DNA of 17,162 nucleotides from IMG/VR virus record IMGVR_UViG_2579778634_000010, positions 1 through 17,162 of that record, one strand, 5' to 3'. Shown in pieces: positions 3,496 to 14,329 of this stretch. The notes under the pieces are model-generated. The model saw nothing but the letters and a program-made list of their open reading frames with translations. It was not told where the DNA came from and made no database searches. The translations under genes and the position numbers were made by a program. Every line of letters begins with the position of its first letter. The first letter of the stretch is position 1. The DNA comes from a virus. Its lineage: Duplodnaviria > Heunggongvirae > Uroviricota > Caudoviricetes.

Positions 3496-4236
3496 TCACA
3501 TACCCTGACGTCCAACGTTTGACCGCCAGCTCTCCCAGTTAAAATTCACCCAACGACCACCATTCATGGTCATACGGTCCATCACTCGCTCCCCCAGAAG
3601 CCTGCTCATCGCACCGTGATTCAGGTTAGTCAGCATCCCGACACTGCGCAGTGATGCCGTTCTGCGGTCGACGATCTGGTTCAGTATGACCTGCTCGTTG
3701 CGCGTATCCCGCTGCATGCCAATTTCATCAAGGACCAGAAGGTCAACTCCACAAAGCTCCTGTAAAAATTTTTCCCCGGACTTGCCGTTGTCGTAGCCGT
3801 CATGCAACACACTCATGACATCGGACACGGTGACGATAATCACGCTTCTCCCCTTCGCCATTAGCCAGTTGCCAATCGCTGCTGCAAGGTGATTTTTCCC
3901 GGTGCCAGGTTTACCGCTGAACACGAAATTCGTGCAGCCGGTATGCAGCTCTGCCGCGATGGATTTTGCCTGACTCAGAGCATGGCGCTGACCGTCGTTC
4001 TGCACCCGGTAGTTCCCGAATGAGCACTTCCTGTGAAGCGGCTGGATGCCCGAACGGTTCAGGATTTTTTCAACCCGCGCCTGATGATTCAGGCGGTTAA
4101 TTTCCTCGCTGCGCTTACGGCCCTCAGCCAGTTGCCATTCCCGCCATTCGTCGGTCGTCCGGAACGGTGCTGCCACGTGCGGTGGTGCCAGACGGCGCAC
4201 CCGTTCAAGAATCCCTCCTGTCGAAATGTTTTTCAT
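3496..4236 (-). CDS. DnaC-like helicase loader (IstB-type AAA+ ATPase)
   Basis: 246 aa; Walker A GKPGTGKNHLA, Walker B LLVLDEIG; start 6 nt after the stop of the O-like gene. Confidence 0.85.
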   Translation of the reverse strand: MKNISTGGILERVRRLAPPHVAAPFRTTDEWREWQLAEGRKRSEEINRLNHQARVEKILNRSGIQPLHRKCSFGNYRVQNDGQRHALSQAKSIAAELHTGCTNFVFSGKPGTGKNHLAAAIGNWLMAKGRSVIIVTVSDVMSVLHDGYDNGKSGEKFLQELCGVDLLVLDEIGMQRDTRNEQVILNQIVDRRTASLRSVGMLTNLNHGAMSRLLGERVMDRMTMNGGRWVNFNWESWRSNVGRQGM

Positions 4237-4242
4237 GGCTGA

Positions 4243-5343
4243 TTACCCCCTGAAACCCGGCGGAATTTCGGTGTCCGGTTCAGAAATGTGATTCACGCAA
4301 CGCAGGCTGACTGCGCCAGCCTTCGGCAGCGACCACGGATTTTCGAAATTCCTGTTCGGGCCAAAAAACGTCGATGCCTGCTGAACAAATTCAGTTCCCG
4401 CTTTCCCGGTAGCCTCCAGGTATCTTGCGTAACGCCTCACGCCATCCAGCACGACATCCGGTGACACCCCTTCGCGTAATCTGGCCCTCCAGGCATTGAA
4501 CGCGGATTTCTTCGGGTTTGACCCTGCCCGATGCGGATATTCACGCCAGACCCGTTCGAACACGTCAGGATAATCAACTCGTCCCGCAGACGGTCCCGGC
4601 ATCGCCCGGGTTAACCCAATCGGCTTCCCGCTCATCGCGGAATCGGCTTCAGGCTGCTGCGGTTGGCGTTGTTGCTCCGGTTCGACGATCAGCACCTGCT
4701 GCACACAACGCCCGGAATCTGCTTCCGGTGTCGTGCCAGCTGGTCCTGGACGTTCAGTCAGAACAGGACAAAAATCCCCCTGCGGGTCCGTGGCGATTTT
4801 TTCGCCATGGACCAGAAGGGTTTTATCCCTTTCCTGTTCTTGTTCTTGTTCCTGTTCCTGTTCCTGTTCCTGTTCTTGGCTTGAAAGGGGCTCTGAAGGG
4901 GCTTCAATTTTCCGACATGATTCACGTCTGACATCCAGGTGGAAATCATCCTTATATCTATCATAAAAGGATGATAAAAAAGGATTTTCCAGCAACGCGG
5001 AATATTCATTTCTTACCCCAGCACAACGGTTATCGCCAGGTTTCAGCGATTCACCAACCTGCCATGCTGCCATTTCATGCACCCATACAACCTCAGAATC
5101 ATGGTCATAGCTGCAAAAACCAGCCTCGCAAGCCATTTGAAGCCCCTTAGAAGCCCCTTCAGGATCAAGTCCGGTTTCGTGAGCAATGTACAAAACAGGC
5201 AGGTAATAAAGGCCCAGCATATTGGAATGAGGCGAGGTCATCATATACAACGCCACTACCATACATTCCGGACCAGACTTCCTTAGTTTTCTCCCTGTTT
5301 CGCCTAACCAGAACTGAGGTGAAATTGTTGCGTAATTACGCAT
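4243..5343 (-). CDS. Replication initiation protein, O-like (YdaU/DUF1376-type) with internal (EQ)n tract
   Basis: 366 aa; position between the cII-like and DnaC-like genes; N-terminus MRNYATISPQFWLGETGRKL; acidic EQEQEQ tract; family assignment from memory. Confidence 0.7.
   Translation of the reverse strand: MRNYATISPQFWLGETGRKLRKSGPECMVVALYMMTSPHSNMLGLYYLPVLYIAHETGLDPEGASKGLQMACEAGFCSYDHDSEVVWVHEMAAWQVGESLKPGDNRCAGVRNEYSALLENPFLSSFYDRYKDDFHLDVRRESCRKIEAPSEPLSSQEQEQEQEQEQEQEQERDKTLLVHGEKIATDPQGDFCPVLTERPGPAGTTPEADSGRCVQQVLIVEPEQQRQPQQPEADSAMSGKPIGLTRAMPGPSAGRVDYPDVFERVWREYPHRAGSNPKKSAFNAWRARLREGVSPDVVLDGVRRYARYLEATGKAGTEFVQQASTFFGPNRNFENPWSLPKAGAVSLRCVNHISEPDTEIPPGFRG
4834..4875. repeat. 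Hexanucleotide tandem repeat (CTGTTC/TTGTTC) x7 encoding (EQ)n on the - strand
   Basis: Seven consecutive 6-bp units read directly; in frame within the O-like CDS. Confidence 0.9.
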
Positions 5344-9220: not shown

Positions 9221-9396
9221 AAAGTGAATTTTGTGATGCGGTGAATGCGGCTATGCGCACGCGGAACAGTTAAACCGACAGGATGTCACGGAAAGTCATC
9301 GTCCCCTGACCCGGCGTTAGTTGTTAACTGGTTAACGTCACCTGGAGGCACCAGGCACCGCATCAACAAAGTTCATTTGTGAAAATGGAGATAATT

Positions 9397-9618
9397 ATGA
9401 TTGCTCATCACTTCGGAACTGATGAAATACCACGTCAGTGCGTGACGCCTGGCGATTATGTTCTTCATGAAGGTCGGACATATATCGCTTCAGCAAACAA
9501 TATTGAAAAGAGAAAACTCTATATTCGTAACTTCACAACAAAAACATGCATTACCGACTGCATGATTAAAGTTTTCATCGGGCGCGATGGCTTACCCGTA
9601 AAAGCAGCGTCGTTGTGA
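9397..9618 (+). CDS. KilR-like small protein (candidate cell-division inhibitor)
   Basis: 73 aa from ATG 9397 (GGAG 6 nt upstream), the length of Rac KilR; position between the accessory genes and the recombination genes; identity from memory, not searched. Confidence 0.5.
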
Positions 9619-9701
9619 CGAGTAATAAAATACACCTTCCATATCTGTAACAGACAAGCCGAAATAAAACCGCATTAATTATCAATCACGGAAAAATCAA
9701 A

Positions 9702-10088
9702 ATGAAAGAACTTGCGCAAAATGAAATATTTTCCGAAACCAGTCCTGATGCAATAAATGAACTCAAAGAAATTGCAGAACGCATCAGTAAAATATGCAAA
9801 GAATACAAAATCGACTTTGTATTTTCTTTTTCAGTGCTTACAGAAGTTGGAAATAACGAATATAAGGACAGTCGTTTTGTTTTATGTGGGTTAAATGGCA
9901 AAACACCAAGCCCATATATTCATGCTGCACGTGAAGTCGTCAGAAGCAACATTGGAGTACAACAAATCCATACACTGGCGCAGGCTCTTGAGTTTGCAAG
10001 AGAAAATTCCGAGTGCGACTGCCCTGAATGCCAGCACGAAAAGGGAAAAACAACTCACAAAACAGCAAACCAGGCAACCTTCCACTGA
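9702..10088 (+). CDS. Hypothetical protein with C-terminal CDCPECQ Cys cluster (128 aa)
   Basis: Complete ORF, weak SD; sits where racC/ydaE lie in Rac-type prophages. Confidence 0.55.
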   Translation: MKELAQNEIFSETSPDAINELKEIAERISKICKEYKIDFVFSFSVLTEVGNNEYKDSRFVLCGLNGKTPSPYIHAAREVVRSNIGVQQIHTLAQALEFARENSECDCPECQHEKGKTTHKTANQATFH

Positions 10089-10095
10089 AATAAAA

Positions 10096-10122
10096 ATCCG
10101 GCAGCGCAGGCTACCGGATTTC
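10096..10122 (+). terminator. Weak hairpin / possible antiterminated terminator between genes
   Basis: Stem ATCCGG/CCGGAT with 12-nt loop followed by TTT; U-tract is short. Confidence 0.25.
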
Positions 10123-10195
10123 TCCCTGCGTCACCGTATTCGGAGAAATCAGACAAAGGGCCGCTAATTCTAATCCAGCCAGAGGTTTAAATACA

Positions 10196-12268
10196 ATGAG
10201 CGCTGATAAACAGACTTTTGCACTACACTGCGAAGCAAAAAACGATAAAGTCAGAAAACGCCTTGGCATCAAAGGCGGTTTTTTCTGGACCGAGGCCAGA
10301 AAACTTTCTGTCGCAGTTTCCCGCTGCATTGCAGCCATGGACGATGCAGGCTACGACGAGGATGATTTCAAAAAACCCGTTCGCGTAAATTTCCCCGTCG
10401 TGAATGACCTTCCACCGGAAGGCGTGTTTGATACTGAATTCTGCAACCGCTATGAAAAAGGCGGTAACGATGGCATCACCATGATGGCTATCCCCTTCGA
10501 TGACAACATCAACGGTGAAGATGCCACAACTGCTGGCGATGACAACGATAACCTGGACGGAACTATTCCGGATGATGTGGAGAAAAGCGAATCCCCGGAC
10601 AGCGACGATGACTGTTCTGAGTGTGAAATTCCCGTCGCCACTCTGAGCCTTACTCATCGCTTCCTTCACCTCTTCTTATTCAGCAAAGATGAAGATGGAA
10701 AATACCGGCATCATGCCACACCAGAACAACGCAATAACGTGATCCGTATGGAGATGGACACAGAGGACAGTTACCTTCAGAGCCTGCTTACTGCTGTGCG
10801 CGCCGCGCATCATGAACTGGATAAACTGACGAACTATCACCTTAGTCGCCTGGCTGAATCTGTAGGGAAAGCATTCCCCCACTCTGCAAATCATCGCATC
10901 AGCCCGGCTGAATTCGACAAGTTCATTTCCACCTGGATGAAAACTGACTACCTTGATCAGGGCCTGCTGACAAAAGAATGGCAGAACGGAAATTATGTTT
11001 CAGGCATTACCCGTACGCCTTCCGGTGCTAACGCTGGCGGCGGAAATATTACCGATCGTGGTGAAGGATTCAAACATGATAAGACATCACTCGCACGAGA
11101 TGTAGCCACCGGCGTTCTGGCCCGTTCAATGGATGTGGATATTTATAACCTGCACCCAGCACACGCAAAACGCGTTGAAGAAATCGTGTCAGAGAATAAG
11201 CCGCCCTTTTCTGTTTTTCGCGACAAATTTATCGCCATGCCCGGTGGGCTGGATTATTCCCGCGCCATTGTGGTGGCTTCCGTGAAAGAAGCACCAATCG
11301 GCATTGAGGCCATCCCGGCACGCGTGACTGAATATCTCAACAAAGTGTTGACCGAAACCGATCACGCTAACCCGGATCCGGAAATCGTGGAAATTGCCTG
11401 CGGTCGCTCATCAGCACCGATGCCGCAGCGCGGAACAGCAGAAGGAAAACATGGCGATGAAGAAAAGCAACAAGCATCGGACACAATGGCTAATGAACAG
11501 GCAGCGCCTGAATCAGTGGAAGAAATTCCAGTTAAACATAATGAGGACACGCAATCACTGGAAAATGTCTCATCTGTAGAAACGAAATACCAGGAACTGA
11601 GGGAGGAACTCAATAAAGCCAGGGAAAACATCCCCCCAAAAAATCCAGTCGATGCCGACAAATTACTGGCTGCCTCGCGTGGAGAATTCGTTGAAGGCAT
11701 CAGTAACCCTGCTGATCCGAAGTGGGTTAAGGGGATCCAGACTCGCGACACTGAGGACCAGAATCAGTCCAAAGTGGAACAAATTGCCCCAGAAGCGGGA
11801 CAAAACAGCCCGGATACGCAACAAAACGGGCCAGAAGAGCAACAGCCAGGGCCAGTAATGCAACAGGAAGTGGAAAAGGTTTGCACCACATGCAGTCAGA
11901 ACGGTGGCGGCCATTGCCCTGACTGTGGTCCAGTAATGGGAGATGAAACTTACGCTGAAACTTTTGGAGAAAATGACGCCGCTGATGGAGAAGACTCAGC
12001 ACAAACTGAGGAGAAGATCATTCAGGAAAACTCTGTTGATGCCGCTCAGGAGGGCGAAACCGTTGTTCAGAACGAGCCAGGCAGTGATACGTCCGGCGAT
12101 GACGCCAATTCTGAGCCAGTAACTCTCGACTGGAAAAGACAGCTCGTGATTGCCGCCGTCTATGGTTTGTGCGCCAACCCCGCATGTATAGCCACAGCGC
12201 CAGCAATCCCTGATATCGCCATCATGATTGCCAACAGGCTTGAAAATTTCGGAGGTGATAAATCATGA
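10196..12268 (+). CDS. Large acidic low-complexity protein (690 aa), possibly related to the RecE N-terminal region, without a nuclease domain
   Basis: Uninterrupted 2073-nt ORF; D/E-rich tracts; CxxC...CxDC near the C-terminus; stop overlaps the gam start (ATGA); the RecE resemblance is from memory. Confidence 0.8.
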
Positions 12269-12561
12269 ATGCCTGGCTTATCCCCGATCGCATTGAAGAG
12301 CAGTCATGGGCACGACACTACCAGCAAATTGCCCGTGAAGAAACTGAAGCTGAGCTGGCAGACGACCTGGAAAAAGGTCTGCCCCAACACCTGTTTGAAT
12401 CGCTATGCATCGATAATCTGCAACGTCACGGGGCCAGCAAAAAAGCTATTTCCCGTGCATTTGATGACGATGTCGATTTTCAGGAACGCATGGCAGAACA
12501 CATCCGCTACATGGCTGAAACCATCGCCCGTCACCAAATTAATATTGATTCAGAGGTATAA
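12265..12561 (+). CDS. gam: Gam, host RecBCD inhibitor (short GamS-length form)
   Basis: 98 aa; [50 protein letters not shown] close to lambda Gam; GGAGGT 8 nt upstream. Confidence 0.9.
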
Positions 12562-12566
12562 AACGG

Positions 12567-13352
12567 ATGAGTACAGCACTCGCAACGCTGGCAGGGAAGC
12601 TGGCTGAACGTGTCGGCATGGATTCTGTCGACCCACAGGAACTAATCACCACTCTTCGCCAGACGGCATTTAAAGGTGATGCCAGCGATGCGCAATTTAT
12701 CGCATTGTTGATCGTCGCCAACCAGTACGGCCTTAATCCCTGGACGAAAGAAATTTACGCCTTCCCTGACAAGCAAAACGGCATCGTTCCGGTGGTTGGC
12801 GTTGATGGCTGGTCCCGCATTATCAATGAAAACCAGCAGTTTGATGGCATGGACTTTGAGCAGGACAATGAGTCCTGTACATGCCGGATTTACCGCAAAG
12901 ATCGCAATCACCCGATCTGCGTTACCGAGTGGATGGATGAATGTCGCCGCGCACCATTCAAAACCCGCGAAGGCAGAGAAATCACCGGACCGTGGCAGTC
13001 GCATCCCAAACGGATGTTACGGCACAAAGCCATGATTCAGTGTGCTCGCCTGGCCTTCGGATTTGCTGGCATCTATGACAAGGATGAAGCCGAGCGTATT
13101 GTCGAAAATACTGCATATACTACAGAACGTCAGCCGGAACGCGACATCACCCCGGTTAACGAAGAAACCATGTCGGAAATTAACGCCCTTCTTACTTCCA
13201 TGGAAAAAACGTGGGATGACGACCTGTTGCCGCTCTGTTCCCAGATTTTTCGCCGCAACATTTACACATCTTCAGAACTAACACAGGCTGAAGCTGTGAA
13301 GGTTCTTGGATTCCTGAAACAGAAAGTCACAGAGCAGAAGGTAGCAGCATGA
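12567..13352 (+). CDS. bet: Bet (Red-beta) single-strand annealing protein
   Basis: 261 aa, near-identical to lambda Bet as remembered ([50 protein letters not shown]...). Confidence 0.95.
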
Positions 13353-14026
13353 CACCGGACATTATCCTGCAACGTACAGGGATCGACGTGAGAGCTGTCG
13401 AACAGGGGGATGATGCGTGGCACAAATTACGGCTCGGCGTCATCACCGCTTCAGAAGTTCACAACGTGATAGCAAAACCCCGCTCAGGAAAGAAATGGCC
13501 TGACATGAAAATGTCCTACTTCCACACCCTGCTGGCTGAGGTTTGCACCGGTGTGGCTCCGGAAGTTAACGCTAAAGCGCTGGCCTGGGGAAAACAGTAC
13601 GAGAACGACGCCAGAGCCCTCTTTGAGTTCACTTCCGGCGTGAATGTTACTGAATCCCCGATCATCTATCGCGACGAAAGTATGCGCACCGCTTGCTCTC
13701 CCGATGGTTTATGCAGTGACGGCAACGGCCTTGAACTGAAATGCCCGTTTACCTCCCGGAATTTCATGAAATTCCGGCTCGGTGGTTTCGAGGCCATAAA
13801 GTCGGCTTACATGGCCCAGGTGCAGTACAGCATGTGGGTGACACGAAAAGATGCCTGGTACTTTGCCAACTATGACCCGCGTATGAAGCGTGAAGGACTG
13901 CATTATGTCGTGGTCGAACGGGATGAAAAATACATGGCTGGTTTTGACGAAATGGTGCCAGAGTTCATCGAAAAAATGGACGAGGCACTGGCTGAAATTG
14001 GTTTTGTATTTGGGGAGCAATGGTGA
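13349..14026 (+). CDS. exo: Exo (Red-alpha) 5'-3' exonuclease
   Basis: 225 aa, near-identical to lambda Exo as remembered ([54 protein letters not shown]...); ATGA overlap with bet. Confidence 0.95.
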
Positions 14027-14077
14027 TAGCCAGTAGCAACGAGGTGCAAATGATATGACAATTAAGGAATACTACCG

Positions 14078-14329
14078 GTGTTCGTTCTAATCCAGCGCGG
14101 GCAGTCTTTCGTCGATGCCAACAACTATCCGGTTGAAGTCTGCAAAATCACTCTGACGCAGGTAATCTTCCGCAGGCTGGATGGGAGAACCAGAGCCGCT
14201 TCAATTAGCGCATTTAATGCAGAATTTGAGCGAATCGATCACAACGAACTACACATGATTAAAGCAGAAATTGAGAAGGAAAAGCATATTGCCAGCCTTC
14301 GAAAAATGCGCCGCATATCAATCAACTGA
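14078..14329 (+). CDS. Hypothetical small ORF (83 aa, GTG start)
   Basis: No SD; only support is the strong intrinsic terminator 2 nt after its stop. Confidence 0.3.
   Translation: MFVLIQRGQSFVDANNYPVEVCKITLTQVIFRRLDGRTRAASISAFNAEFERIDHNELHMIKAEIEKEKHIASLRKMRRISIN

Follow-up and report, generated by a model that had tools for sequence, protein, structure and literature searches.

A predicted nuclease-less relative of the RecE N-terminal region with a conserved C-terminal tail precedes the lambda Red genes in a lambdoid phage

The window analysed here is the whole stretch of 17,162 nucleotides (nt) of the IMG/VR virus record IMGVR_UViG_2579778634_000010 (Caudoviricetes), which forms the early region of a lambdoid phage. 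We studied an open reading frame (ORF) of 690 amino acids (aa) that lies downstream of kil and of a gene for a 128-aa protein and is followed by gam, bet and exo (Table 1). The ORF starts with ATG, and its start MSADKQ/MSTDKE is common to the homologues. A first-pass annotation, made from the letters alone, had described an acidic protein that might resemble the N-terminal part of RecE, lack a nuclease domain and mark a junction between a Rac-like and a lambda-like recombination module. The acidity is evident from the composition: D and E make up 18.1% of the residues, K and R 9.7%, and the net charge is -58.

Table 1. Features of the 690-aa ORF and its neighbours in the window (position 1 is the first nucleotide of the window; pLDDT, predicted local distance difference test; dN/dS, ratio of nonsynonymous to synonymous substitution rates)
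Feature	Position	Strand	Evidence
kil (KilR-like), upstream gene of the same leftward operon	9379..9618	+	DNA comparison with Rac
128-aa protein (phrog_2016) of unknown function, immediately upstream of the 690-aa ORF	9702..10088	+	PHROG
690-aa ORF, predicted nuclease-less member of the RecE N-terminal-region family	10196..12268	+	ORF list, Pfam, BLASTP, NCBIfam
Residues 1-105, alpha/beta, pLDDT >90	10196..10510	+	AlphaFold2
Residues 106-139, acidic disordered linker, pLDDT <50	10511..10612	+	AlphaFold2, composition
Residues 140-415, "head" domain of mostly helical structure with the core 246-412, pLDDT >90	10613..11440	+	AlphaFold2
DNA block 75% like K-12 Rac recE nt 638-1631; Rac-type similarity stops at its end	10938..11964	+	blastn against Rac
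Residues 416-458, acidic disordered linker, relaxed constraint	11441..11569	+	AlphaFold2, dN/dS
Residues 459-494, conserved helical segment beginning YQELREEL	11570..11677	+	AlphaFold2, dN/dS, alignment
Cys4 motif C563-x2-C566-x7-C574-x2-C577, zinc-ribbon-like	11882..11926	+	Sequence, alignments
Residues 579-641, acidic disordered linker, unalignable to K-12 RecE past ~601	11930..12118	+	AlphaFold2, BLASTP
Residues 642-690, conserved C-terminal "tail", predicted helical hairpin	12119..12265	+	AlphaFold2, alignments, dN/dS
gam, 98 aa (GamS length), ATGA overlap with the stop of the 690-aa ORF at 12265-12268	12265..12561	+	ORF list, Pfam
DNA block 92.1% like lambda 33091-31350, covering gam from codon 8 onward plus bet and exo	12286..14027	+	Lambda comparison
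bet, 261 aa, 94% identical to lambda Bet (PF03837)	12567..13352	+	Pfam, lambda comparison
exo, 225 aa, 97% identical to lambda Exo (PF09588)	13349..14026	+	Pfam, lambda comparison

To place the protein we compared it to RecE of the Rac prophage of Escherichia coli K-12 (866 aa). BLASTP aligned query residues 58-601 to RecE residues 50-555 with 53% identity (E=3e-179), and around residues 250-410 the identity was ~85%. The sole Pfam match was PF06630 (Exonuc_VIII) at residues 55-197, which scored 48 bits against a gathering cut-off of 25. The suspected kinship with the RecE N-terminal part is thus well supported. The similarity stops short of the RecE nuclease domain: PF12684 (DUF3799), found at residues 615-850 of K-12 RecE, was not matched by the 690-aa protein in Pfam, as the first-pass annotation had expected. 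The NCBIfam equivalog model for RecE (NF007259) gave a score of 738.9 against a curated cut-off of 1269 and could be aligned at model positions 1-598 of 877 only. A tblastn search of Rac with the C-terminal 95 aa of the protein gave no match. A frameshifted nuclease remnant further downstream or in another frame, proposed earlier as a sign of simple pseudogenisation, was ruled out: both tblastn and blastn against Rac came back empty, the DNA similarity to recE ends at 11964 and the gam start lies inside the stop codon.

In databases and phage records the homologues are uniformly labelled "exodeoxyribonuclease VIII". For the 690-aa protein this name is unjustified, because the score lies under the NCBIfam RecE cut-off. 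Judged by its sequence the protein is a homologue of the N-terminal region of RecE that fails the defining features of the RecE enzyme, and given the missing nuclease domain we predict that it has no 5'-3' exonuclease activity on double-stranded DNA. It shares with RecE the slot after kilR in the leftward early operon, PF06630, the conserved core, the helix and the Cys4 motif. The two differ in what follows: RecE has PF12684 and recT as a partner, whereas the 690-aa protein has a tail of 45 aa and is then followed by gam, bet and exo. No recT adjoins the ORF; recT follows recE in Rac and in locus L006. One part of the first-pass annotation did not hold, namely that only the non-catalytic part of RecE had been kept. 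The protein is not simply truncated, since its last ~45 residues form an old, conserved domain that is one of several alternative C-termini.

We then studied the family as a whole. We searched 1.84 billion representatives exhaustively with phmmer and obtained just 208 clusters of ~450-1089 aa, from which we examined 84 long representatives that are mutually <50% identical. The family core extends beyond the Pfam region (residues 246-412); it is present in the 690-aa protein and was detected in most of the 84. Their C-termini fall into several types: a PD-(D/E)XK domain in ~20, a DEDDh domain in 14 and the tail of the 690-aa protein in 21-22. The remaining representatives have none of these three; short helical ends of at least two further types recur among them. 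One of these contains "…KYLEGRLRRL…" and one closes in "…HGE"; both are non-enzymatic (P0127, P0142, P0178, P0190, P0200, P0223, P0262; P0137, P0179, P0212, P0242). A single protein, P0124, closes in the C-terminus of RecT and may be a fusion or a mis-assembly. Among the nuclease-bearing relatives, P0116, a RecE of 1049 aa, is near-identical to the 690-aa protein over residues 1-510 and carries PF12684 at 862-1026. Another RecE-type relative of 915 aa has recT as the next gene downstream. All C-terminal junctions are located just after the Cys4 motif (CPDCG.VMGD.TY.ETF).

Prophage proteins with a DEDDh end (813-823 aa; for example WP_000102181 and WP_000034457) occur in lambdoid prophages of the dicB-ydfD type and are annotated "exonuclease" or "3'-5' exonuclease". 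They share the operon slot and the swap point with the 690-aa protein. The protein of locus L004 is 61% identical to it over residues 1-590, that of L003 is near-identical only over 486-599. They differ in having a DEDDh C-terminus of the Rv2179c-like type (PF16473) and in being directly followed by xis and int, with no gam, annealase gene or lambda exo. The fusion genes are located at 2589..5060 in L003, 4001..6445 in L004 and 4501..6942 in L005, and join a nuclease with the opposite polarity to the same N-terminal scaffold. The Cys4 motif is common to the 690-aa protein, RecE and the DEDDh fusions. The N-terminal region of ~590 aa is an independent, selected module with swappable C-terminal ends. 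In the literature that we covered, which was incomplete, no paper dealt with a nuclease-less form, with the conserved tail or with a C-terminal slot for different modules.

The tail has the family motif L[TS][YWF].QQLTIAALQGLCANPA…[DE][DE][IL]P.[MI]A, in which AA..G.CANP is invariant. The motif stays sharp even in proteins that are only 25-35% identical overall to the 690-aa protein, including proteins from other genera. Among the 84 long representatives the tail was always at the extreme C-terminus and never occurred together with a nuclease domain. No Pfam family covers it and no PDB sequence matched it. In PHROG, tails match positions 580-629 of the 633 of phrog_26058 ("unknown function"); the tail of the 690-aa protein itself gave a weak match (E=0.0084), and phrog_607 was slightly better. 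A profile search of a set of 5.8 billion proteins returned short fragments only, and by tblastn in phages we saw the tail in the architecture of the 690-aa protein only. The idea that the tail stems from a stand-alone small gene upstream of gam was rejected, as P0244 and P0250 turned out to be fragments of frameshifted or partial genes. A membrane anchor is unlikely: hydrophobic as the tail of the 690-aa protein is, the consensus of the family (QQLTIAALQGLCANPA…DDIP) has an amphipathic and polar character. A general role as docking peptide for lambda Exo, Bet or Gam was rejected too, since Red genes are missing from 42 of the 80 viral loci with the tail and from 8 genome loci; such docking is possible within the E. 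coli clade. The tail may be an oligomerisation or adaptor module, a suggestion that we make with some reserve. According to a review the RecE nuclease domain assembles as a toroidal tetramer, and we speculate that a hairpin able to self-associate could plausibly stand in for it. In metagenome-assembled genomes of cyanobacteria we encountered stand-alone proteins of 65-94 aa with the tail motif (FRQ[QH]LIIAAVQGLCANPTQ…), at 4583..4780 in L019, 115..399 in L017 and 1525..1731 in L018. The L019 gene is located 57 nt downstream of a gene for a ParA/Soj-like ATPase (3627..4526). It may be that the hairpin is a small domain in its own right.

The domain layout in Table 1 was derived from an AlphaFold2 run on a family alignment of 85 sequences, with a mean pLDDT of 75. 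The two helices of the tail hairpin (646-660 and 668-685) reached a pLDDT of 63-79, and disorder was predicted at residues 106-136, 422-456, 514-560 and 579-641. The folded head is about neutral and the negative charge is concentrated in the disordered linkers. Family-wide conserved positions are W262, G265, T274, A280, G282, T286, D287, L299, A304, P349, G350, L352 and R356; at position 302 the 690-aa protein has D and 79% of the family have E. The clusters W262-A304 and P349-R356 are a candidate functional surface without a recognisable catalytic motif. A Foldseek search of the predicted structure against the PDB gave no informative relative (best E 0.21), and no match was found in BFVD. The head (residues 1-105 and 140-415) is thus a confidently predicted folded unit of ~400 aa with no structural relative in these searches. 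The PADLOC defence models had no match for the 690-aa protein, for K-12 RecE or for a core-plus-tail protein from Citrobacter, and a defence protein was rejected on this ground. The Cys4 cluster noted in the first-pass annotation has the spacing CxxC-x7-CxxC. In addition, the helical head opens with a C-x2-C-x10-H-x3-H pattern (residues 140-158, window 10613..10672), which is common to P0121 and missing from K-12 RecE; it could be a second metal site in a sub-lineage.

In order to evaluate the constraint on the gene we computed dN/dS by the Nei-Gojobori method against the copies in phages 75/02 and phiSTEC1589. The overall value was ~0.22. The lowest values were observed for the core (246-412) with 0.05-0.14 and for residues 461-520 with about 0.10-0.15; the linker 413-460 reached 0.7-0.95 and the last 50 codons, i.e. 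the tail, 0.18. The synonymous rate leaps between segments of the ORF, which indicates heavy mosaicism. The gene is also common. Many database clusters have a length of 680-700 aa and 76-99% identity to the 690-aa protein. The junction of the ORF with gam was found, with at least 80% covered, in 79 of 5426 complete E. coli genomes, and the DNA of the tail in 106 of the 5426, including O104:H4 outbreak strains. The architecture is that of a widespread lineage and not a one-off junction, the ORF has not arisen as a reading frame by chance, and the 690-aa protein is complete and under purifying selection.

At the junction itself, the ATGA overlap and the GamS length of gam were as first described. 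The 98-aa protein covers positions 1-98 of the 98 of Pfam Gam (PF06064) and is 84% identical to residues 41-138 of lambda Gam in its annotated 138-aa form (the GamS part). That the Red genes match lambda "almost exactly" is a fair description for Bet and Exo, less so for Gam. The three genes are orthologous to those of lambda and their order is kept, but the lambda gam lies after kil and cIII and is annotated with 138 aa, whereas here the shorter gam is translationally coupled to the 690-aa ORF. The lambda-like block starts 21 nt inside gam, and exo is the only 5'-3' recombination exonuclease encoded in the module.

The exchange is documented by L025, a prophage at the Rac attachment site (ttcA, intR, xisR, ralR). 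The recE-like gene of this prophage matches K-12 recE over nt 306-1762 at 93.6% identity, and the flank on the right, starting with ralR, matches Rac at 99.7%. Between the two, 1965 nt comprising the tail, gam, bet and exo replace 1709 nt comprising RecE residues 588-866 and recT. The swap point falls at RecE residue 587/588 and so lies on the border of the nuclease part. The classical minimal active fragment of RecE presumably begins at residue 588 as well. The junction between a Rac-like and a lambda-like module, put forward in the first-pass annotation, can hence be seen directly in an isogenic Rac background. Reviews place the RecE nuclease domain at 564/606-866. For the sampled E. coli matches with an annotated feature under the tail, this feature always included gam or a RecE-family gene, and in both loci that we inspected (L025 and L026) gam was directly downstream of the tail. 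In L026 (2222..5539; E. coli FDAARGOS_943) the N-terminal RecE-like gene is pseudogenised and the tail is an unannotated remnant; gam is followed by an AAA_24 ATPase (PF13479) in place of bet and exo, which looks like another swap of recombinase modules at the same place.

The explanation that we consider most probable overall, with moderate confidence, is that the 690-aa protein is a complete, selected and non-catalytic member of the RecE N-terminal family that would work as a scaffold in trans to Red. Its parts differ in strength. We hold the identity, the architecture and the cassette exchange with high confidence. A role as an accessory for recombination or DNA ends in trans to Red is a tentative proposal, and so, at a similar level, is that of a non-catalytic scaffold on DNA ends or on a target in the DNA metabolism of the host. 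The tail occupies the C-terminal slot in which RecE has a PD-(D/E)XK nuclease and other prophage relatives have a DEDDh 3'-5' exonuclease. In E. coli and Shigella phages the form originated, and persists, as a cassette of tail, gam, bet and exo that exchanges with the RecE nuclease domain plus recT. Resection is thereby delegated to the separately encoded lambda Exo, and the 690-aa protein would supply in trans what the RecE N-terminal region supplies in cis. We picture a flexible, probably oligomeric scaffold whose head would bind a DNA-end-related or host target and whose C-terminal module would provide an enzymatic activity in the nuclease forms or an assembly or adaptor function in the tail form. 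Co-expression with Gam would result from translational coupling in an N-antiterminated leftward operon. The N-terminal region is retained whichever recombinase adjoins, from which we infer that it has its own role. Enhanced linear-linear recombination by full-length RecE is the one effect published for this region; reviews otherwise describe it as dispensable and "of unknown function".

Several observations weigh against this explanation. Gam directly follows the tail in 38 of the 80 tail-bearing loci in IMG/VR (E. coli/Shigella type, mostly with bet and exo too), and the other 42 have no gam, bet, exo, recT or nuclease gene nearby, on contigs that end 1.7-2.8 kb downstream. A motif scan of species-level genomes identified core-plus-tail proteins of 473-635 aa in prophages of Citrobacter, Buttiauxella, Lelliottia and Cedecea, and for 8 enterobacterial loci tblastn detected no homologue of Gam, Bet, Exo, RecT, the RecE nuclease or DEDDh within ~7 kb. 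The ORFs downstream in these loci encode small Rrf2-like or winged helix-turn-helix, DUF1187 and DUF7740 proteins, followed by xis and int. These proteins, like phrog_26058, share with the 690-aa protein the core (31-48% identity), the tail motif and the position as last large gene of the leftward operon, but most differ in having neither the RecE-like first 100 residues nor the segment with the helix and Cys4 motif, nor adjacent recombination genes. Since about half of the tail-type loci have no recombinase nearby, the tail is not tied to Red and the module is autonomous. Together with the DEDDh forms, which stand directly before xis and int without an annealase, these loci indicate that no two-component recombinase is needed and weaken a strictly recombination-linked role. 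Furthermore no fold or profile match offers a biochemical handle on the protein, and the functional part of the explanation is what we infer.

The same loci are the main argument for the strongest rival, which we regard as unlikely but still serious. Here the head would act early and autonomously, outside homologous recombination, for instance by binding a host protein in the service of host takeover or anti-defence; the nucleases would be secondary fusions into a variable C-terminal slot and the linkage to Red in E. coli phages mere synteny at the end of the leftward operon. The lack of an annealase beside the DEDDh forms, a C-terminal slot with at least five module types and the head being the universal and most conserved part all fit this rival, as does the report that the RecE N-terminus is dispensable for recombination (bioRxiv 10.1101/2022.01.13.476211). 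It is countered by the absence of a match to PADLOC or another known family, by two of the C-terminal modules being DNA exonucleases, which argues for a DNA-linked role, by the retention of the N-terminal region beside a swapped type of recombinase and by the changed recombination outcome with full-length RecE. On a further reading, which we also regard as unlikely, the RecE N-terminal region would be an early phage protein that is autonomous, has a new fold and carries a swappable effector slot for at least five module types, and RecE would be one fusion product. The head's own function, conceivably the targeting of a DNA-metabolism or defence component of the host, would then have escaped notice, as work was confined to the nuclease domain. 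The tail would count as a new small domain with an assembly or adaptor role, which in cyanobacteria also stands alone beside ParA-like genes.

Very unlikely, in our view, is a second rival in which the N-terminal part of RecE inhibits RecBCD as Gam does, possibly as an acidic mimic of DNA. This old suggestion for recE is recorded in bioRxiv 10.1101/2022.01.13.476211; Rac has no gam, and the net charge of -58 would suit a mimic. Against this, an ORF of the 690-aa type directly precedes a true gam here and in more than 100 E. coli genomes, where it would be redundant, hhalign of the family profile against Gam gave a probability of 0.09%, and the acidic residues sit in disordered linkers under relaxed constraint whereas the head is about neutral. 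Least of all do we expect a decaying recE that was cut by a Red-importing recombination and is read through junk to the next stop: the missing nuclease domain and the abrupt end of the similarity to Rac recE would fit, but this reading is contradicted by conservation and selection (AA..G.CANP kept in 25-35%-identical proteins of other genera; dN/dS 0.18 in the tail and 0.22 overall), by an intact ORF of constant length in hundreds of clusters and by the different look of real pseudogenes such as L026 and the fragments P0244 and P0250.

The function of the ~590 N-terminal residues of RecE has been a loose end for decades, and the linear-linear boost by full-length RecE underlies direct-cloning technology. 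The locus is a natural experiment in which this region is its own protein beside a separate exonuclease, annealase and RecBCD inhibitor, so that the open question of its function becomes directly testable, also from the angle of recombineering. The gene belongs to the known family PF06630; its nuclease-less, tail-bearing form appears to be new and adds a previously undescribed conserved domain of 45 aa to the interchangeable C-terminal ends. It also exposes a systematic and widespread mis-annotation: hundreds of "exodeoxyribonuclease VIII" entries have no nuclease domain, including those of Shiga toxin (Stx) phages and of the O104:H4 outbreak lineage.

Related phages have the same surroundings. 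Window positions 9600-14100 are 98.7% identical to Escherichia phage PhiR5_2, and the identity to the Shigella Stx phages 75/02 and POCJ13 is ~91%. The PhiR5_2 and Stx records list the genes in the order cI, N, kil, one for a 128-aa hypothetical protein, "exodeoxyribonuclease VIII", gam, bet, exo and int. The kil region (9327-9632) is 88.6% identical in DNA to the kilR region of Rac. In prophages outside E. coli a small gene for a YdaE-like zinc protein (CxxC…CxxC) lies directly before the core-plus-tail gene and often overlaps it (L009 5071..5271, L010 5128..5328, L012 5478..5675 and relatives); ydaE is found near recE in Rac, and no such gene is present between kil and the 690-aa ORF in the window. 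A 90-aa ORF (9895..10167, + strand) overlaps the 3' half of the 128-aa gene in another frame and matched phrog_29463 over residues 40-67 with E=7e-12; it is a candidate overlapping gene. The first 110 nt of the 690-aa ORF contain two adjacent terminator-like hairpins with T-runs (10259..10303, + strand). Across 9300-12700 we counted 14 terminator-like sites compared to 3.8 expected from shuffles. The two hairpins overlap a conserved N-terminal coding motif and may reflect coding constraint; they could also make expression depend on antitermination by N.

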